Virus record (IMG/VR): IMGVR_UViG_3300045988_104231
Length of the DNA: 57,710 nt
Source of the DNA: a virus
Strand: one strand, 5' to 3'
Below, piece by piece: positions 20,227 through 25,370 of this stretch. A program made the position numbers and the translations under genes. How positions within the stretch are numbered: the first letter of the stretch is position 1; each line of letters begins with the position of its first letter. The notes below the pieces were generated by a model that ran no database searches, was not told the origin of the DNA, and was given only the letters and a program-made list of their open reading frames with translations.

Positions 20227-21054
20227 TCAAAACAATGTTTTCTCTAAATCATAATTAATCCAAATCACCTCTTGTACCTCACTGCTCCGGATGTTATTCT
20301 TCTTGACCGGGAACTTTATCATGTTCCAATCCCCGTACAACTCCCGCATTAACGGACAGTCATAACTACTTATCATTGCCTTGCCTTTGATCGAATGCAA
20401 ACGATCGGAAAGCTCACGATGCTTATCGTCAGAGAACTCGTACTTGTAATCATTCGAAGAGGCCCGGCACTCAAGCGGATAGGGTGGGTCGGCGTAGAAG
20501 AAAGCGTTTGGGAAATCAAGCCGATCAATGCAATCCTTATAGTCCAGATTGGTGATCTGGAAATTGCCCCTGATCACCTCTGCGACCTCATGCAGTTTCT
20601 CTATCGCGTTGTTCCATCGGGAGACAGTCTCTCCGCCCTTGGCGTTGACATGTTGCTTGGCACAATGCCAACCCTTGTTCTTCTGTTGCGCTCCCAACCC
20701 GAAGAATGATTGCCGGATACGGACGTAAAACCTCCTTGCACGCTCTATCTTATCCCCGGAAGGTTCCCATGAGTTATTATACTCCAGTTCGGAGCATGGG
20801 GTTAACAGCAATAACCTTGTCAACTCCGGCTCATGATCCCTTAATACCTCGAAGAAGTTGGTTATATCCCCGTTTATCTCGTTGGCCGTCTTGATAACCC
20901 TTCCCGGATAATTGATGGACACGGCCATGCTTCCGGCGAACAGATCGACCAGATGGGTGAAATCTCTTGGAAAGTTCGTGTACAGATACTCCAACCAAGT
21001 GAATTTCCCTCCGAAGTAATTGAAGGCTATAAGTTTATTTCTGTTTCCGCTCAT
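20227..21054 (-). CDS. dam: Dam-like (D12 class) N6-adenine DNA methyltransferase
   Basis: FNYFGGK...LVDLFAGSMAV (AdoMet site) and FFYADPPYP (catalytic DPPY). Confidence 0.85.
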   Translation of the reverse strand: MSGNRNKLIAFNYFGGKFTWLEYLYTNFPRDFTHLVDLFAGSMAVSINYPGRVIKTANEINGDITNFFEVLRDHEPELTRLLLLTPCSELEYNNSWEPSGDKIERARRFYVRIRQSFFGLGAQQKNKGWHCAKQHVNAKGGETVSRWNNAIEKLHEVAEVIRGNFQITNLDYKDCIDRLDFPNAFFYADPPYPLECRASSNDYKYEFSDDKHRELSDRLHSIKGKAMISSYDCPLMRELYGDWNMIKFPVKKNNIRSSEVQEVIWINYDLEKTLF

Positions 21055-21079
21055 GAATCATAATGATCAAATTAATAAT

Positions 21080-21727
21080 TTACCCCGCTTTCTCAAAAGC
21101 CTTCTCAAAGACCTCCGGCCTTAGCAAGGCGTTGCTTATCGCCGTGAACGCCTTCACGATCCCGGGCTGCTCATTTAAGTTTATTCTCACGTCCTTTCCA
21201 GTGACCTCGCTTGATAACCGGTCACTTAGGAACTCTACCCTGCCCAAATCTAGATAGGACAGGGGATTGTACGCCAAGGGGACGATCCCCCGCATCCTTT
21301 CGCCGAAATCGTATATCGTGATCCTAGACATCTGCGCAATCATGTTTATCGTGGATGACAAGGATGCTATCCTGTTCGCCGAACCGGATACCCCGTGATC
21401 CAGCAATATCTGGCTGATCGTGTAGTAATACCGGTCTATGTGAGGCTGCACGTCCTCCTCCATGCTTTGCGTTATCTCGGCTAACGCCTCCTTGTTGGCC
21501 TTGGCTATCCGGAAGATGTTGGTGTTATAAGCGTTTATCCCCCTCTCGATAGCGTTGGCCGTCCGTTTTGCGTTATGCCTGTAGTGCTCGCTATTCCTTA
21601 TGGCCTCCATGAGTGATACCGTGTAGTTATACACTTGGTCGTTCAAGAAAAGCACCATGTAGGTTAGCGAGGTGACAAGGCCGTTCGTGTCCTTGTCGAT
21701 CTCTTCCCAATCGTTGTATTGTTTCAT
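21080..21727 (-). CDS. Hypothetical protein, translationally coupled to the ACP-like gene
   Basis: 215-aa ORF. Its start overlaps the ACP-like stop by 4 nt. Confidence 0.55.
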   Translation of the reverse strand: MKQYNDWEEIDKDTNGLVTSLTYMVLFLNDQVYNYTVSLMEAIRNSEHYRHNAKRTANAIERGINAYNTNIFRIAKANKEALAEITQSMEEDVQPHIDRYYYTISQILLDHGVSGSANRIASLSSTINMIAQMSRITIYDFGERMRGIVPLAYNPLSYLDLGRVEFLSDRLSSEVTGKDVRINLNEQPGIVKAFTAISNALLRPEVFEKAFEKAG

Positions 21728-21975
21728 TCCTCCATCCTCCTGATCATATAATCAACAACGTCCTTTACGGTATGGCATCGTCCGAGATCATCATCAGGGA
21801 TCAATATGCCAAACTCTTTCTCCAGCTCCATCAATATCTCTACCTTGTCAAGACAGTCCATCCATAGATCATCCTCCAGCTTGGATTTCATCGTAAGTGG
21901 CGTATCTTCGTTAAAAAGTCTACTCTTTATGATCTCAAATACTTTGTTCTTTATAGTTTCTTTTTCCATTTTCAT
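21724..21975 (-). CDS. Acyl-carrier-protein homologue with Cys replacing the phosphopantetheine-attachment Ser
   Basis: EDDLWMDCLDKVEILMELEKEFGILIPDDD aligns with E. coli AcpP [29 protein letters not shown]. The DSL position is DCL (TGT codon at 21853-21855). Confidence 0.7.
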   Translation of the reverse strand: MKMEKETIKNKVFEIIKSRLFNEDTPLTMKSKLEDDLWMDCLDKVEILMELEKEFGILIPDDDLGRCHTVKDVVDYMIRRMEE

Positions 21976-21986
21976 GATCGTTTTAT

Positions 21987-22670
21987 TTATAATTGAAACA
22001 TTGATGTCTGTATTATCTTTTTACCACTAGGTAATATGATTTCACCTAGGCATTCTTCCTTAAACCTTTTATCTTGGGCATTGAAATATTCCTTGTCTAT
22101 CTCGGTTGCGTAAAAATCAAAACCCATTTTATAGGCGGCTATACGGCTGCTTCCGCTCCCCAAATGAGAGTCATAAATTTTGTCACCGGGATTGGCGTAA
22201 TTTTTCAAAATCCATAAATACAATGAGAGCGGTTTTTGGTGTGGATGTATCTTTCCCTTTCCGGTCTCATGTCCCATCCTATATCCATCCCACGGAATGG
22301 AGACAAGATTGCATGGGATTTTTTTTGGCACGTAGGCTATCTCACATTTCGAGTATTTAAACACATCGTTATTGTTGCTCATCTTATCCCAAACAATCAA
22401 ATAGTTGGTATTTCCTAGATATTGGGTGTAATAATTATATCCCCATATGATCTGATCCTTGCTAATTCTTTTTAACTCATCGAAGTATGACGCATCCTTG
22501 ATGGGGCTATTCTTATAGGATGTATCCTTGAATTTATACCCATTATTCCTTTTCTTCCAGTCCTCTCCTATACCATACGGTGGACCTACGATAGCTAGAT
22601 CAAAGAATTTATCAGGAATGTTTCTCATATAGTCCATACAATCCTCGTTGTAAACATTGCTTATAGCCAT
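21987..22670 (-). CDS. Beta-class N6A/N4C DNA methyltransferase
   Basis: N-terminal IVGPPYG (catalytic motif IV) and C-terminal YDSHLGSGSSRIAA (motif I). Permuted order as in N4/N6 MTases. Confidence 0.8.
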   Translation of the reverse strand: MAISNVYNEDCMDYMRNIPDKFFDLAIVGPPYGIGEDWKKRNNGYKFKDTSYKNSPIKDASYFDELKRISKDQIIWGYNYYTQYLGNTNYLIVWDKMSNNNDVFKYSKCEIAYVPKKIPCNLVSIPWDGYRMGHETGKGKIHPHQKPLSLYLWILKNYANPGDKIYDSHLGSGSSRIAAYKMGFDFYATEIDKEYFNAQDKRFKEECLGEIILPSGKKIIQTSMFQL

Positions 22671-22731: not shown

Positions 22732-22968
22732 TTAAACCTTATTTGTTTTAGCGAACACCACGCTCTCATGATCCGGCCTAAGATGGGCCATGCAAGCCTT
22801 GCTGTATTCGCAGAATCTCGCTCCCTCGTCCCGGAAGACGCATCCCCCGCACGGGATCTTGTTCTGACCGTTATAATACGGCCTGTACTTTTCAACGATA
22901 ATTTTCATGTCTCCTACCAACACGATCAAACCGGTAGGGGTGTTCTTCAGTCTGTTGATTATTTCCAT
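22732..22968 (-). CDS. Hypothetical Cys-rich small protein
   Basis: 78-aa ORF containing CGGC...C...C. Confidence 0.45.
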   Translation of the reverse strand: MEIINRLKNTPTGLIVLVGDMKIIVEKYRPYYNGQNKIPCGGCVFRDEGARFCEYSKACMAHLRPDHESVVFAKTNKV

Positions 22969-22978
22969 GATTTGTTTT

Positions 22979-24334
22979 TTAAAATGGTTCTTCTTGTGAT
23001 ACTTCTTGGCTTATAGTGAACCCGCTATCATCATATTCCATAAAGTGAGTGGTCTTTGCCTCAAATTTCACGATAAACTTGGCTAATCCGATATTTCTTC
23101 CTTTCGCTATATCTATCATGGCTGTTCCTCCCACGGGATAATTCTGGAAAGGCTCAGGATAATATTTTCCATAAAGCTCAGGCCTATAGATCAGCATGAC
23201 AACATCGGCGGCCTCCGCTATTTGTCCGCTGGCCCTTAATCTTGCCAATGAGGGGGCCGGATTCATTTGGTCCCTGTTTAGCTGGGACAAGGCGATGATC
23301 CATATGTCTAGTTCCTTGGCCAGATTCTTCAACCTACGAGCGGCCTCACCCATTTGTTGCTCGGTATTGCTACCTCTCATATTCACGGACAATATTTGCA
23401 GGTAATCCACTACCGCCCCAGATATGCCGTATTTGAGTTTCATCGTACGGATGGATGAAAGTATCGTGTCTATGTTAGAAGTGCTCCTGTCGTCAAAATA
23501 AACAGGCTTATCGTAGATCTTTCCTATTCCCATGTCGATACGGTTGAATTGCTCGGGCAAGAGTCTTGAATACATGATCTCGTTGGCGGGTATCCCAGAC
23601 TCCATGGATATCATCCTAGCCGCTATCTGCTCTTTTTTCATTTCCATAGAGTAGAACGCTATCCCATCACCATTCTTGGCGGCGGATAACGATAAGGCTA
23701 CCGCTAGGGATGTTTTTCCAGAAGACGTATCTGCCGCTATGATTATGAGATCTGATCTCTGTAATCCCCCGCTACGCTTGTCTATTTCATGGAATCCGGT
23801 AGGCGTTCCTGTTAGCTGTTTGTCATCGGATGCGTTAAGCGCCATTTGCCTTGATACCTCCTTGATCGCTTCCCTAAGGGTAAATACGCTGTCTTTCGAT
23901 GTCTGGAAAAGCCCCTTGAGCTTGTCCTCTGTATCCGATAACGTGTCAACGATATCGTCCGACTCGGAGTAAGCCCTTGATATCAACTCCTCTCCGATAT
24001 CAATAAATCTCCTTCTCTTCTCCTTGTCATGCAGTAGGGCGGCATGCTGGTAGATGTCGAATGTCATGCATGTGGATACTTGGCTTAACCTTAGCATGTC
24101 CGTGGAAGGGTCTATTTTCATCATCTCGTTGGCTACGGCTATCATGTCCGGTCTATCTCCTCTGCCGTCTATGTTGGATATAGCCTCGAACATGGCCCTA
24201 TGGAAAGGATCATAGAAACAAGAAGGGGATAATATATCCCTTACCTCATTCAATGCGTTTCTTTCCGTCATTATCGTCCCCAGCACGACTTTCTCGGCCT
24301 CCGTATCGTGGGGGACTACCCTGTTAATTTCCAT
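22979..24334 (-). CDS. dnaB: DnaB-type replicative helicase
   Basis: PHDTEAEKVVLGTIM N-terminal domain, Walker A AADTSSGKTS, and IIALSQLNR motif. Confidence 0.9.
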   Translation of the reverse strand: MEINRVVPHDTEAEKVVLGTIMTERNALNEVRDILSPSCFYDPFHRAMFEAISNIDGRGDRPDMIAVANEMMKIDPSTDMLRLSQVSTCMTFDIYQHAALLHDKEKRRRFIDIGEELISRAYSESDDIVDTLSDTEDKLKGLFQTSKDSVFTLREAIKEVSRQMALNASDDKQLTGTPTGFHEIDKRSGGLQRSDLIIIAADTSSGKTSLAVALSLSAAKNGDGIAFYSMEMKKEQIAARMISMESGIPANEIMYSRLLPEQFNRIDMGIGKIYDKPVYFDDRSTSNIDTILSSIRTMKLKYGISGAVVDYLQILSVNMRGSNTEQQMGEAARRLKNLAKELDIWIIALSQLNRDQMNPAPSLARLRASGQIAEAADVVMLIYRPELYGKYYPEPFQNYPVGGTAMIDIAKGRNIGLAKFIVKFEAKTTHFMEYDDSGFTISQEVSQEEPF

Positions 24335-25370
24335 AATCTTTTTTCTTTACCTCCATTATCGTCTCAAAAATGCTATTCTTGAACTTTATGAGGCGATCGT
24401 CGTTGTTAATTTTCTTGACTATTTCCGTTAATTGCTTTCTGTTCATACGGTTTAGGATCTCTATCTCCTCGTCTGAAGGGAATATGGGCATCTCTAGTAT
24501 CAGAGGAGCCTCCTTTTCCAGATATGAGTATAGATTAGTTTGCTTTATTGATGTTAGGGATTTGATATCCACTTTACCTCTAGCTTTTTTTACTTGGTTA
24601 GAAGGAAGATCCAAGGCGTTTATGAACGTCCTTTTCCAGTCTATATTAGAGCTTTTCGAGCTTTTTTTCTTCTTCCATCCTAATTCGGTGCTCCAGTAGT
24701 CTAAATACGCTTTCTTTAGCGACAATCGGATGTCTATGCCCGGATGCAGACTTTGGCGTTGAGCTATGAACTCGTCATCGTTAGATAAGGATTCATAGGC
24801 TTCTCTCAACCGATCGCAGTACACATCGAAGCTTTCTCTCCAATTATCCGTATTTTCATCTTCCTCTTCCTCTTCTCCTTCTTTTTCCCCCATACCCCCT
24901 ATATTATCCTTAACTCTATTACTATCTATATTACCTATACCTATACCATAGGGGCTATCAAGCCCCTTTGAAGGGGCTACTAAGGGGCTACCAAGGGGCT
25001 TTTTAAAGAAATCTTCAATTGATTGGAAACCAAACAATTGCTTCATTTCCTCTAATCTTCTTATTATACCTCTATGCGCAGCGTTCTTAGAATTCAAGGG
25101 AAGGTTCTTTTGGTGCTTGATGAAATTACGTATATAAATATACTTACCGTCCACCGAATAAAGTAATCGTCCTTCAAGCTCCCTTAGGCCTCTTTCAACT
25201 TCTTGCTTACCTAGTACTAGATCAAAGCTGATCTTCTTCTCGTTTATTTCCATGAAGCCAGCTAGGTCGCAAAGGTCGCACAAGTACAAGAACAGAAGCT
25301 TGCTAGTCGCTTTCAGGTCGCAGAACCAGTTATCCGTCCATTTGTTCGTATCTGTATATCTATATGCCAT
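24324..25370 (-). CDS. Putative replication initiator / helicase loader
   Basis: 348-aa ORF overlapping the dnaB start. Acidic EEEEEDE linker. Function inferred from synteny only. Confidence 0.45.
   Translation of the reverse strand: MAYRYTDTNKWTDNWFCDLKATSKLLFLYLCDLCDLAGFMEINEKKISFDLVLGKQEVERGLRELEGRLLYSVDGKYIYIRNFIKHQKNLPLNSKNAAHRGIIRRLEEMKQLFGFQSIEDFFKKPLGSPLVAPSKGLDSPYGIGIGNIDSNRVKDNIGGMGEKEGEEEEEDENTDNWRESFDVYCDRLREAYESLSNDDEFIAQRQSLHPGIDIRLSLKKAYLDYWSTELGWKKKKSSKSSNIDWKRTFINALDLPSNQVKKARGKVDIKSLTSIKQTNLYSYLEKEAPLILEMPIFPSDEEIEILNRMNRKQLTEIVKKINNDDRLIKFKNSIFETIMEVKKKDYGN

Follow-up and report, generated by a model that had tools for sequence, protein, structure and literature searches.

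What does an acyl carrier protein (ACP) homolog do in a phage when it lacks the serine to which the 4'-phosphopantetheine cofactor is normally attached? This question is raised by a gene for an 83-amino-acid (aa) protein in the IMG/VR virus record IMGVR_UViG_3300045988_104231, a stretch of 57,710 nucleotides (nt) that is referred to below, in its full length, as the window. In this protein cysteine takes the place of the phosphopantetheine serine, and the gene lies together with a gene for a 215-aa protein between two DNA methyltransferase (MTase) genes. A preliminary description of the locus had drawn attention to this arrangement and had considered roles in DNA modification or in the evasion of restriction. 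The reading that we favor here, and to which we would give about an even chance of being correct, is that the window ACP is an allele locked in the apo form and weakened in function, belonging to an accessory gene that is dispensable and under relaxed constraint. In our opinion the Cys form is neither a dedicated thiol carrier nor a factor in DNA modification. On the whole, the observation in the preliminary description was confirmed and its interpretation was partly supported; in one respect the case had been undersold, as the Cys lineage is widespread and loss of the Ser is recurrent in other phage ACPs.

The assignment of the 83-aa protein to the ACPs, which had been proposed over its full length, was borne out by each of the methods used. 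The protein matched the PF00550 PP-binding family with 26.9 bits (cutoff 20.8), and its best match among the PHROG families was phrog_5934, 'acyl carrier protein' (1.5e-17, residues 3-80). Sequences of 130 ACPs in the PDB also matched it (best 2ehs, 6.1e-13, residues 8-79), and in these alignments its D-C-L sat on the D-S-L of the solved proteins. In the AlphaFold model (predicted local distance difference test, pLDDT, 75), helix II was formed by residues 44-55, just past residue 41, and a Foldseek search with this model retrieved nothing but ACPs among the top 50 PDB hits (probability 1.00, template modeling (TM) scores of 0.6-0.75). The protein has the motif DDLWMD-C-LD, a conserved and acidic helix II (LDKVEILMELEKEF), a pI of 4.73 and 21 Asp/Glu against 14 Lys/Arg residues, and it is identical to DAE01128.1 of Siphoviridae sp. 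ctZE52. By its sequence and predicted fold, then, it is a genuine ACP homolog. The Ser of D-S-L, which is required for a canonical ACP, is absent from it, and because of the Cys at this position the protein should be regarded as an ACP homolog that could not be filed as a canonical holo-ACP.

To see how common this substitution is, relatives were collected from 5.8 billion proteins, whose clustering at 90% identity conceals Cys alleles within clusters. We found 43 relatives of the 83-aa protein, mostly with 72-89% identity and all from human-gut metagenomes or Parabacteroides, and Ser was present in 38 of the 41 cluster representatives having a residue at the site. Among 62 collected ACP genes, Ser was encoded by AGT in all 50 Ser alleles and Cys by TGT in all 12 Cys alleles, and the 12 window-type Cys genes shared one identical 246-nt haplotype. 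The exact window ACP was located on at least 32 contigs and was indexed in 70 blocks of the collection, from many samples, and is thus no read or assembly error. The same 90% cluster contained further Cys alleles (P0110, P0117 and P0113), one of which, P0110, comes from a Parabacteroides distasonis isolate genome (WP_349217485.1), while another, P0113, represents a second Cys haplotype (h3) indexed in 30 blocks. Together with the contigs carrying DAE01128.1, these three alleles ruled out that the Cys is private to the window. In a neighbor-joining tree of 19 haplotypes, the window type (h0) and h3 formed one clade, sister to the Ser haplotype h6; one A>T transversion (AGT>TGT) accounts for the only change from Ser to Cys in this lineage. 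Among the 45 ACPs found in 80 IMG/VR loci, 44 had Ser and one had Cys. The Cys is therefore a derived minority state of one widespread sub-clade and not a design of the whole family. Orthologs with Ser had been named beforehand as a sign that the Cys is a strain-specific mutation; such orthologs do prevail, but the change is not strain-specific, being carried by a widespread lineage of two haplotypes.

Two other origins of the Cys were also considered. A sequencing or assembly artefact, to which the distance of a single nucleotide from the orthologs might point, has a negligible probability: 11 contigs, assembled independently and from different samples, carried the identical 246-nt haplotype, six more carried a second Cys haplotype, and the Cys protein is also encoded in the P. 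distasonis isolate genome. Given these independent assemblies, the artefact reading is already refuted. A diversity-generating retroelement was rejected as the source of the substitutions, which mix A>T, A>G, G>A, C>A and T>C changes; in addition, the Pfam scan of the window (74 open reading frames (ORFs), 41 families matched, of which the 25 strongest are covered by our statements) showed no reverse transcriptase among these 25.

The substitutions of the two types of allele were counted separately. For the Ser alleles, a pooled pN/pS of 0.36 indicated moderate purifying selection. On the stem of the Cys clade we counted three non-synonymous changes (H22N, K23E and S41C) and no synonymous one, and the step from h3 to the window haplotype added K4E, E30K and E44K together with one synonymous change, which gives a total of 6 non-synonymous to 1 synonymous and an omega near 1 for the Cys lineage. 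The private changes of the window-type Cys haplotype were four non-synonymous and none synonymous.

The window phage is a complete temperate siphovirus with terminase, portal, capsid, tail and endolysin genes, Ant/Rha regulators, DnaB, an FtsK-like protein and a YafQ toxin. The four ORFs of the block had been described correctly and all lie on the minus strand. They are listed here with the upstream neighbor of the block and the codons of interest:

20227-21054, minus strand: Dam-like (D12, alpha-class) N6-adenine DNA MTase (PF02086, 1.5e-17; phrog_56, 8.8e-57)
21080-21727, minus strand: 215-aa protein, all-helical, with no Pfam, PHROG or PADLOC match
21724-21975, minus strand: 83-aa phage-type ACP homolog, Cys41 allele (PF00550, phrog_5934, solved ACPs and fold)
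21987-22670, minus strand: beta-class N6-adenine/N4-cytosine DNA MTase (PF01555, 1.1e-12; phrog_67, 2.9e-38)
22732-22968, minus strand: 78-aa Cys-rich protein (CGGC...C...C...H), the upstream anchor of the variable slot
21853-21855, minus strand: TGT codon of Cys41 at the phosphopantetheine-Ser position, one A>T change from the AGT of the Ser alleles
21844-21846, minus strand: E44K, private to the window-type Cys haplotype (haplotype comparison)
21886-21888, minus strand: E30K, private to the window-type Cys haplotype (haplotype comparison)
21907-21909, minus strand: K23E, on the stem of the Cys clade (order inferred via the intermediate haplotype h3, P0113)
22584-22586, minus strand: GGT codon 29 of the beta MTase, giving GPPY for DPPY (comparison with orthologs)

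The stop codon of the ACP gene and the start codon of the 215-aa gene share 4 bp as ATGA (21724-21727), and the remaining intergenic gaps in the four-gene block are 11 nt (between the beta MTase and ACP genes) and 25 nt. No minus-strand terminator-like sites were found between the four genes, and promoter-like sites around the locus were no more frequent than in shuffled sequences. The 78-aa Cys-rich protein had no Pfam match; it could bind zinc.

Several other features of the window were recorded. The Pfam scan also identified the YafQ-type toxin (2.4e-29), a leucine-rich-repeat protein of the BspA type (9e-53), several regulators of the Ant/Rha/Bro kind and an FtsK/SpoIIIE-like protein that contains a PD-(D/E)XK domain. 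The DnaB helicase of the window (22979-24334) has 451 aa. In a comparison with L002, L007, L011-L014, L016 and L107, many relatives had a DnaB of 802 aa that contains a LAGLIDADG-type insertion (presumably an intein), and others had no DnaB at that position. When both strands of the region from 17 to 26 kb were searched for RNA elements, the sole match was a sub-threshold one to MIR159, a plant precursor family, at 24494-24625 on the plus strand (27.3 bits, gathering score 74, E = 0.0085); lying antisense inside a protein-coding gene, it is almost certainly spurious.

The gene neighborhood was then compared across about 110 related loci, including 80 IMG/VR loci picked solely for a 215-aa gene of at least 90% identity. 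The slot showed a recurrent order: replication genes, the 77/78-aa Cys-rich protein, an optional MTase, then the ACP or a DUF7694 protein or nothing, and finally the 215-aa gene, which is followed by a variable set of genes (Dam, a distant beta-like MTase, AntA or small ORFs). The ACP was present in 45 and absent from 35 of the 80 IMG/VR loci, and it was absent from all seven divergent loci of Parabacteroides genomes (P. segnis, P. hominis and others), whose 215-aa genes are 33-56% identical. Wherever an ACP was present, its gene overlapped the 215-aa gene by ATGA (64 of 64 ACP-bearing loci), in full agreement with the translational coupling that had been proposed from the window. In 21 of the 45 IMG/VR loci with an ACP, the gene directly upstream of it coded for a homolog of the 78-aa protein; in 10 ACP-less loci such a homolog directly preceded the 215-aa gene.

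The MTases showed no such constancy. Upstream of the ACP in the 45 IMG/VR loci there was a beta MTase in 16 cases, a C5 MTase in eight and no MTase in 21. That two MTases flank the ACP holds for the window, where both were recognized by their families (PF02086 and PF01555), but this arrangement is not conserved: besides the window, only L029 had MTases on both sides. Dam followed the 215-aa gene directly in 9 of the 80 IMG/VR loci, mostly ACP-less ones, and the window was the only one of the compared loci in which a Cys ACP and Dam occurred together. In 18 loci, L069-L087 and L106-L107 among them, the window-type beta MTase (97-99% identical) adjoined an ACP of the Ser type. As to whether Cys-type ACPs recur next to MTases, the six h3 Cys loci (L108-L113) had no MTase on either side, and neither did the second Cys-type phage ACP described below have one nearby. 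The MTases of the slot fall into three unrelated types (beta N6/N4, C5 and Dam) and also occupy it without an ACP.

The window itself proved to be a mosaic. For the 215-aa and Dam genes it matches the ACP-less type of L017 and L019 with 100% identity. The ACP and beta MTase genes are of the type of L007-L016; there, the 215-aa gene has 97.2% identity to that of the window and is followed by AntA instead of Dam. A recombination junction is located at the 5' end of the 215-aa gene or close to it. Since the MTase neighbors are not conserved and the window is a mosaic, the picture of an ACP nested between two MTases is incidental, an accident of one recombinant genome and no conserved system.

Other cargo was noticed in and near the slot. 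In about 21 loci (L017, L019, L021-L023 and others) the place of the ACP was filled by a 113-aa DUF7694 protein (PF24746, 7.9e-15), which was mutually exclusive with the ACP. Within a few kb of the slot we found a protein of the Acb2/Tad1-hairpin type (an anti-CBASS/Thoeris sponge family; L014, 13952-14197), a SocA_Panacea protein (L011, 17152-17745) and HicA toxins (L008, 19125-19310; L012, 16962-17174). This content suggests that the region is a hotspot for conflict-related cargo, and in our view the flanking MTases belong to this hotspot as independent cargo and can be exchanged for one another.

The two MTases of the window differ in the state of their motifs. In the Dam-like MTase, PF02086 covers residues 13-246 and DPPY is intact (...FYADPPYPLE...). 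The beta MTase has the motif order IV then I, with GPPY at residue 29 and GSG at residue 171; its motif IV reads VGPPY (GGT) in the window as against VDPPY (GAT) in 28 of 28 orthologs from the fetched loci. Compared with the L007 type, it has three non-synonymous changes (D29G, S115P and R139G) and no synonymous one. The exact protein (DAE01141.1) was present on six contigs, and the GPPY variant is thus real; judged from its motif, the enzyme is probably inactivated or altered. The S41C change of the ACP and the D29G change of the beta MTase, each at a defining residue, agree with a relaxation of constraint in the accessory block.

What stays constant in the module is the 215-aa gene, which was present, with or without the ACP, in all loci. 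Its family is well conserved, with invariant motifs including LFxNDQVYN and SMExD..PHI. The AlphaFold model is all-helical and of high quality (pLDDT 90.5, predicted TM score 0.89), with eight helices, one of them 59 residues long. The preliminary description had listed this protein as unknown. Like the family searches mentioned above, a profile search against the PDB gave no match, and Foldseek against the PDB returned nothing below E = 0.001 (best TM 0.2-0.3). Against the viral library BFVD, Foldseek returned only uncharacterized proteins of gut Siphoviridae and crAss-like viruses, with TM of about 0.7. An exhaustive profile search for the family yielded 259 clusters (50% identity), nearly all of them stand-alone proteins of 200-250 aa, and domain fusions were uninformative. 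Aldehyde-deformylating oxygenase was rejected as an identity, the weak Foldseek hits (TM 0.2) being noise in a protein with no ExxH pairs. The 215-aa protein is not recognizable as a phosphopantetheinyl transferase (PPTase) or an acyl-handling enzyme, and it needs no phage ACP. The gene upstream of it, whichever it is, always adjoins it tightly, either overlapping it by ATGA or lying 3-44 nt away (homologs in L017-L103). An ACP-partner module common to phage families was not found: the gene after the Serratia-phage ACP is unrelated to the 215-aa family, and no 215-aa homolog follows P0042, the most divergent ACP relative.

We also looked for enzymes that could load or use a carrier protein. 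Among the 25 strongest Pfam families of the window there was no PPTase, acyl-ligase, acyltransferase, fatty acid synthase, polyketide synthase, nonribosomal peptide synthetase or acyl-ACP synthetase. Neither among these families nor in the flanks was a radical-SAM or other loading enzyme found, and the Pfam-annotated flanks of L001-L016, L106-L113 and L124 contained no ACP-using enzymes. For PPTase, acyl-ligase and acyltransferase families, the flanks covered were those of about 100 loci, and they had none. With no PPTase or acyl-handling family among the 25 strongest of the window or in the flanks, Ser-type proteins would depend on the AcpS and other enzymes of the host.

On the basis of these results, the history of the window allele could be pictured as follows. 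The ACP is a phage-type auxiliary protein, optional in temperate Parabacteroides siphoviruses and encoded in a variable region after the replication genes, always directly upstream of, and translationally coupled to, the constant 215-aa gene. The Ser-type protein would presumably be made into holo-ACP by host AcpS. In one sub-lineage the AGT>TGT transversion turned the Ser into Cys, and the resulting protein would, by analogy, be unable to carry 4'-phosphopantetheine. The analogy is with Escherichia coli AcpP, in which S36C, like S36T, is a non-functional allele that fails to replace wild-type AcpP (PMC9456370); on this ground we regard it as most likely that the window protein stays in the apo form. 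The Cys allele might persist and spread because the gene is unneeded and its ORF serves as a coupled leader of the 215-aa gene, hitch-hiking on a successful recombining module. An ORF that is kept open only as such a leader would explain an intact frame together with an omega near 1.

It should be noted that several observations weigh against the idea of a weakened allele. The ratio of 6 non-synonymous to 1 synonymous changes, when compared with the background omega of 0.36, gives a binomial P of about 0.18, which is not significant and reflects too little power, and E30K and E44K affect positions that are variable among ACPs generally. The ACP ORF is intact in every copy of the Cys lineage, and this lineage is common, with two haplotypes found in 70 and 30 index blocks and on several mosaic backbones; being so widespread, it is at least not harmful. 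Further objections come from other phages. Phage 'ACP' genes share the motif DDL[W/R/E][M/L/F]D-S-LD, and cellular ACPs have DLGADSLD; in Vibrio phage 1.187.O (AUR93416.1) the motif is DDLWMDSLD, identical to that of the Ser alleles of the window family. A profile search for the wider family added 83 new clusters, of which 80 had Ser (including all cellular-type ACPs), two had Glu and one had Cys, and Ser was kept in most phage-type ACP lineages, down to 37% identity. The Glu forms (GAG at the carrier position, DDLW[L/F]D-E-LD) belong to the Serratia Miltonvirus phages Kevin, 3M and phiMAM1, and they are under strong purifying selection (pN/pS 0.07-0.20 at pS 0.20-0.28). The second Cys-type phage ACP, P0290 (DDLWMD-C-LD, TGC), is independent of that in the window. 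It was found on a 135-kb phage contig of Vibrio type and two other contigs, and its nearest relatives (Vibrio phage R16F and P0288) have Ser. P0290 has 44% identity to the window ACP. Its identity to the ACP-like protein of Vibrio phage R16F, a Ser-type protein that likewise has the C-terminal CWWCGK tail, is 58%. The neighbors of P0290 are small ORFs, a helix-turn-helix protein, a GIY-YIG protein and a UvrD helicase. The genes concerned are:

L115, 1501-1773: Glu-type ACP of Serratia phage Kevin (XCN27956.1)
L120, 201-473: Glu-type ACP of vB_SmaA_3M (AYP28353.1)
L121, 159-431: Glu-type ACP of phiMAM1 (AFX93560.1)
L124, 5001-5333: P0290 ACP (Logan SRR26726376_35, 135,326-bp contig; also L125)

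These sequences show at least three losses of the carrier Ser among phage-type ACPs, two of them to Cys and one to Glu. Judged by the selection acting on it, the Miltonvirus Glu form is a maintained, functional protein, and a Ser-less phage ACP can thus be functional. The recurrent loss of the Ser therefore raises the probability of a cofactor-independent role for the window Cys protein. It gives no support for a link to DNA methylation.

Such a role is the alternative that deserves most attention, although we consider it rather doubtful. The Cys form would keep a cofactor-independent function as an apo-ACP mimic, decoy or regulator acting through the acidic helix II, and the change from Ser to Cys would have been tolerated or favored; candidate partners are the co-translated 215-aa protein, AcpS, Fab enzymes, PlsX/PlsB-type acyltransferases, Lpx enzymes and SpoT-like proteins. 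Apo-ACP is reported to be a strong inhibitor both of the growth of E. coli and of glycerol-3-phosphate acyltransferase (Keating, Carey and Cronan 1995). In many solved structures ACP is a structural subunit of larger complexes. The strong selection on the Glu-type proteins (pN/pS 0.07-0.20), the independent Ser>Cys change in P0290, the spread of the Cys lineage with its ORF intact, the conservation of helix II (LDKVEILMELEKEF) and the invariant overlap with the 215-aa gene all fit this explanation. However, the retention of Ser in most lineages of phage-type ACPs speaks for an ancestral function that depends on the cofactor, the 215-aa gene does without a phage ACP in 35 of 80 sister phages, and the Cys lineage has an omega near 1, unlike the Glu-type proteins. 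For a thiol that works directly, the case is much poorer. Cys41 itself might be the working group, as a direct thioester or persulfide carrier or as the site of a disulfide with CoA or pantetheine, for nucleotide or DNA modification or for another phage pathway; it does lie exactly at the carrier position at the N-terminus of helix II, and Ser was replaced by Cys twice independently in phage ACPs, though Cys is one of several residues that are a single change away from AGT. We regard this explanation as improbable, as Ser sister alleles share the genomic context, so that no dedicated partner enzyme co-varies with the Cys, no loading enzyme appeared in any flank or among the 25 strongest window families, the MTase association is not conserved, and the S36C protein of E. 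coli is non-functional in vivo (PMC9456370).

Least probable of the functional explanations, and in our view very hard to sustain, is that the ACP forms part of an anti-restriction or DNA-modification unit with the flanking MTases, either as an acidic DNA mimic or as an MTase cofactor. The low pI of 4.73 would suit a DNA mimic, but such acidity is normal for every ACP. An MTase lies directly upstream in 24 of the 45 ACP-bearing IMG/VR loci, and counter-defense-type genes such as that for the Acb2/Tad1-hairpin protein in L014 occur a few kb away in relatives; on the other hand, the other 21 loci and the six h3 Cys loci have no adjacent MTase, and MTases of three unrelated types occur at the same position also without the ACP. 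In Pfam the 83-aa protein matched ACP-like families only, with no match to Ocr or ArdA, and its fold hits were ACPs only. The PADLOC defense models matched neither the ACP nor the 215-aa protein nor three neighboring proteins. With no carrier-using enzyme among the 25 strongest window families either, the role in DNA modification, anti-restriction or DNA mimicry that the preliminary description had entertained found no support.

What follows for phage ACPs in general depends on which of these explanations is correct. If the window allele is merely decaying, which we hold most likely, it provides a clean example of accessory-gene erosion in a phage hotspot. It may also be, though this is a bolder and rather unlikely proposal, that phage-type ACPs are a distinct family whose carrier Ser is repeatedly dispensable, and that the window Cys protein is then a selected apo-ACP mimic binding the 215-aa protein or host ACP clients. 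If so, an apo-ACP mimic could rewire the lipid or stress metabolism of the host, possibly with a thiol available for a disulfide or thioester adduct. In any case, the cofactor-attachment Ser of phage ACPs is not sacred, and at least one Ser-less form is clearly under selection. The natural series of Ser, Cys, Glu and absent states in phages, including otherwise near-identical gut prophages, offers a handle on ACPs as carriers or as protein-binding mimics. The locus is also a caution that the gene neighborhood of a single genome is a poor guide to function.

The window ACP was also compared with known systems. In our literature searches, we found no paper with a tested function for a phage ACP, no paper on the use of Cys by a PPTase and no mention of the Ser-less Miltonvirus (Ackermannviridae) ACP. 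AcpP of type II fatty acid synthesis (PF00550) has the same length and four-helix fold as the window ACP, 35-45% identity over the full length, and likewise an acidic helix II with D-x-L at its N-terminus. The window ACP differs from it in having Cys for Ser and W-M for G-A in the preceding loop, and in being an optional temperate-phage gene with no fatty-acid or polyketide genes nearby. AcpB of Enterococcus faecalis is an auxiliary ACP that is phosphopantetheinylated by AcpS and acts in acylated form (PMC6509188); like the window ACP, it comes in addition to a housekeeping ACP and has a role outside bulk fatty-acid synthesis, whereas the window ACP is without the attachment Ser. The phage ACPs of PHROG 5934 (Vibrio 1.187.O, ICP1 and Prochlorococcus phage P-HM1) have the motif in common with the window ACP and differ from it in their Ser and their neighboring genes. 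P0290 has Cys at the same position and relatives with Ser, but has a C-terminal CWWCGK tail, another type of genome and other neighbors. The Miltonvirus Glu-type proteins are, like the window ACP, phage ACP homologs with DDLW.D-x-LD and without the carrier Ser; their Glu is fixed across the genus under purifying selection, whereas the window Cys lineage is young, nested among Ser alleles and has an omega near 1. Finally, the engineered AcpP alleles S36C and S36T concern the same residue, and S36C is the same substitution as in the window, where it occurs within a phage-type ACP, as a natural allele that circulates widely in gut phages.

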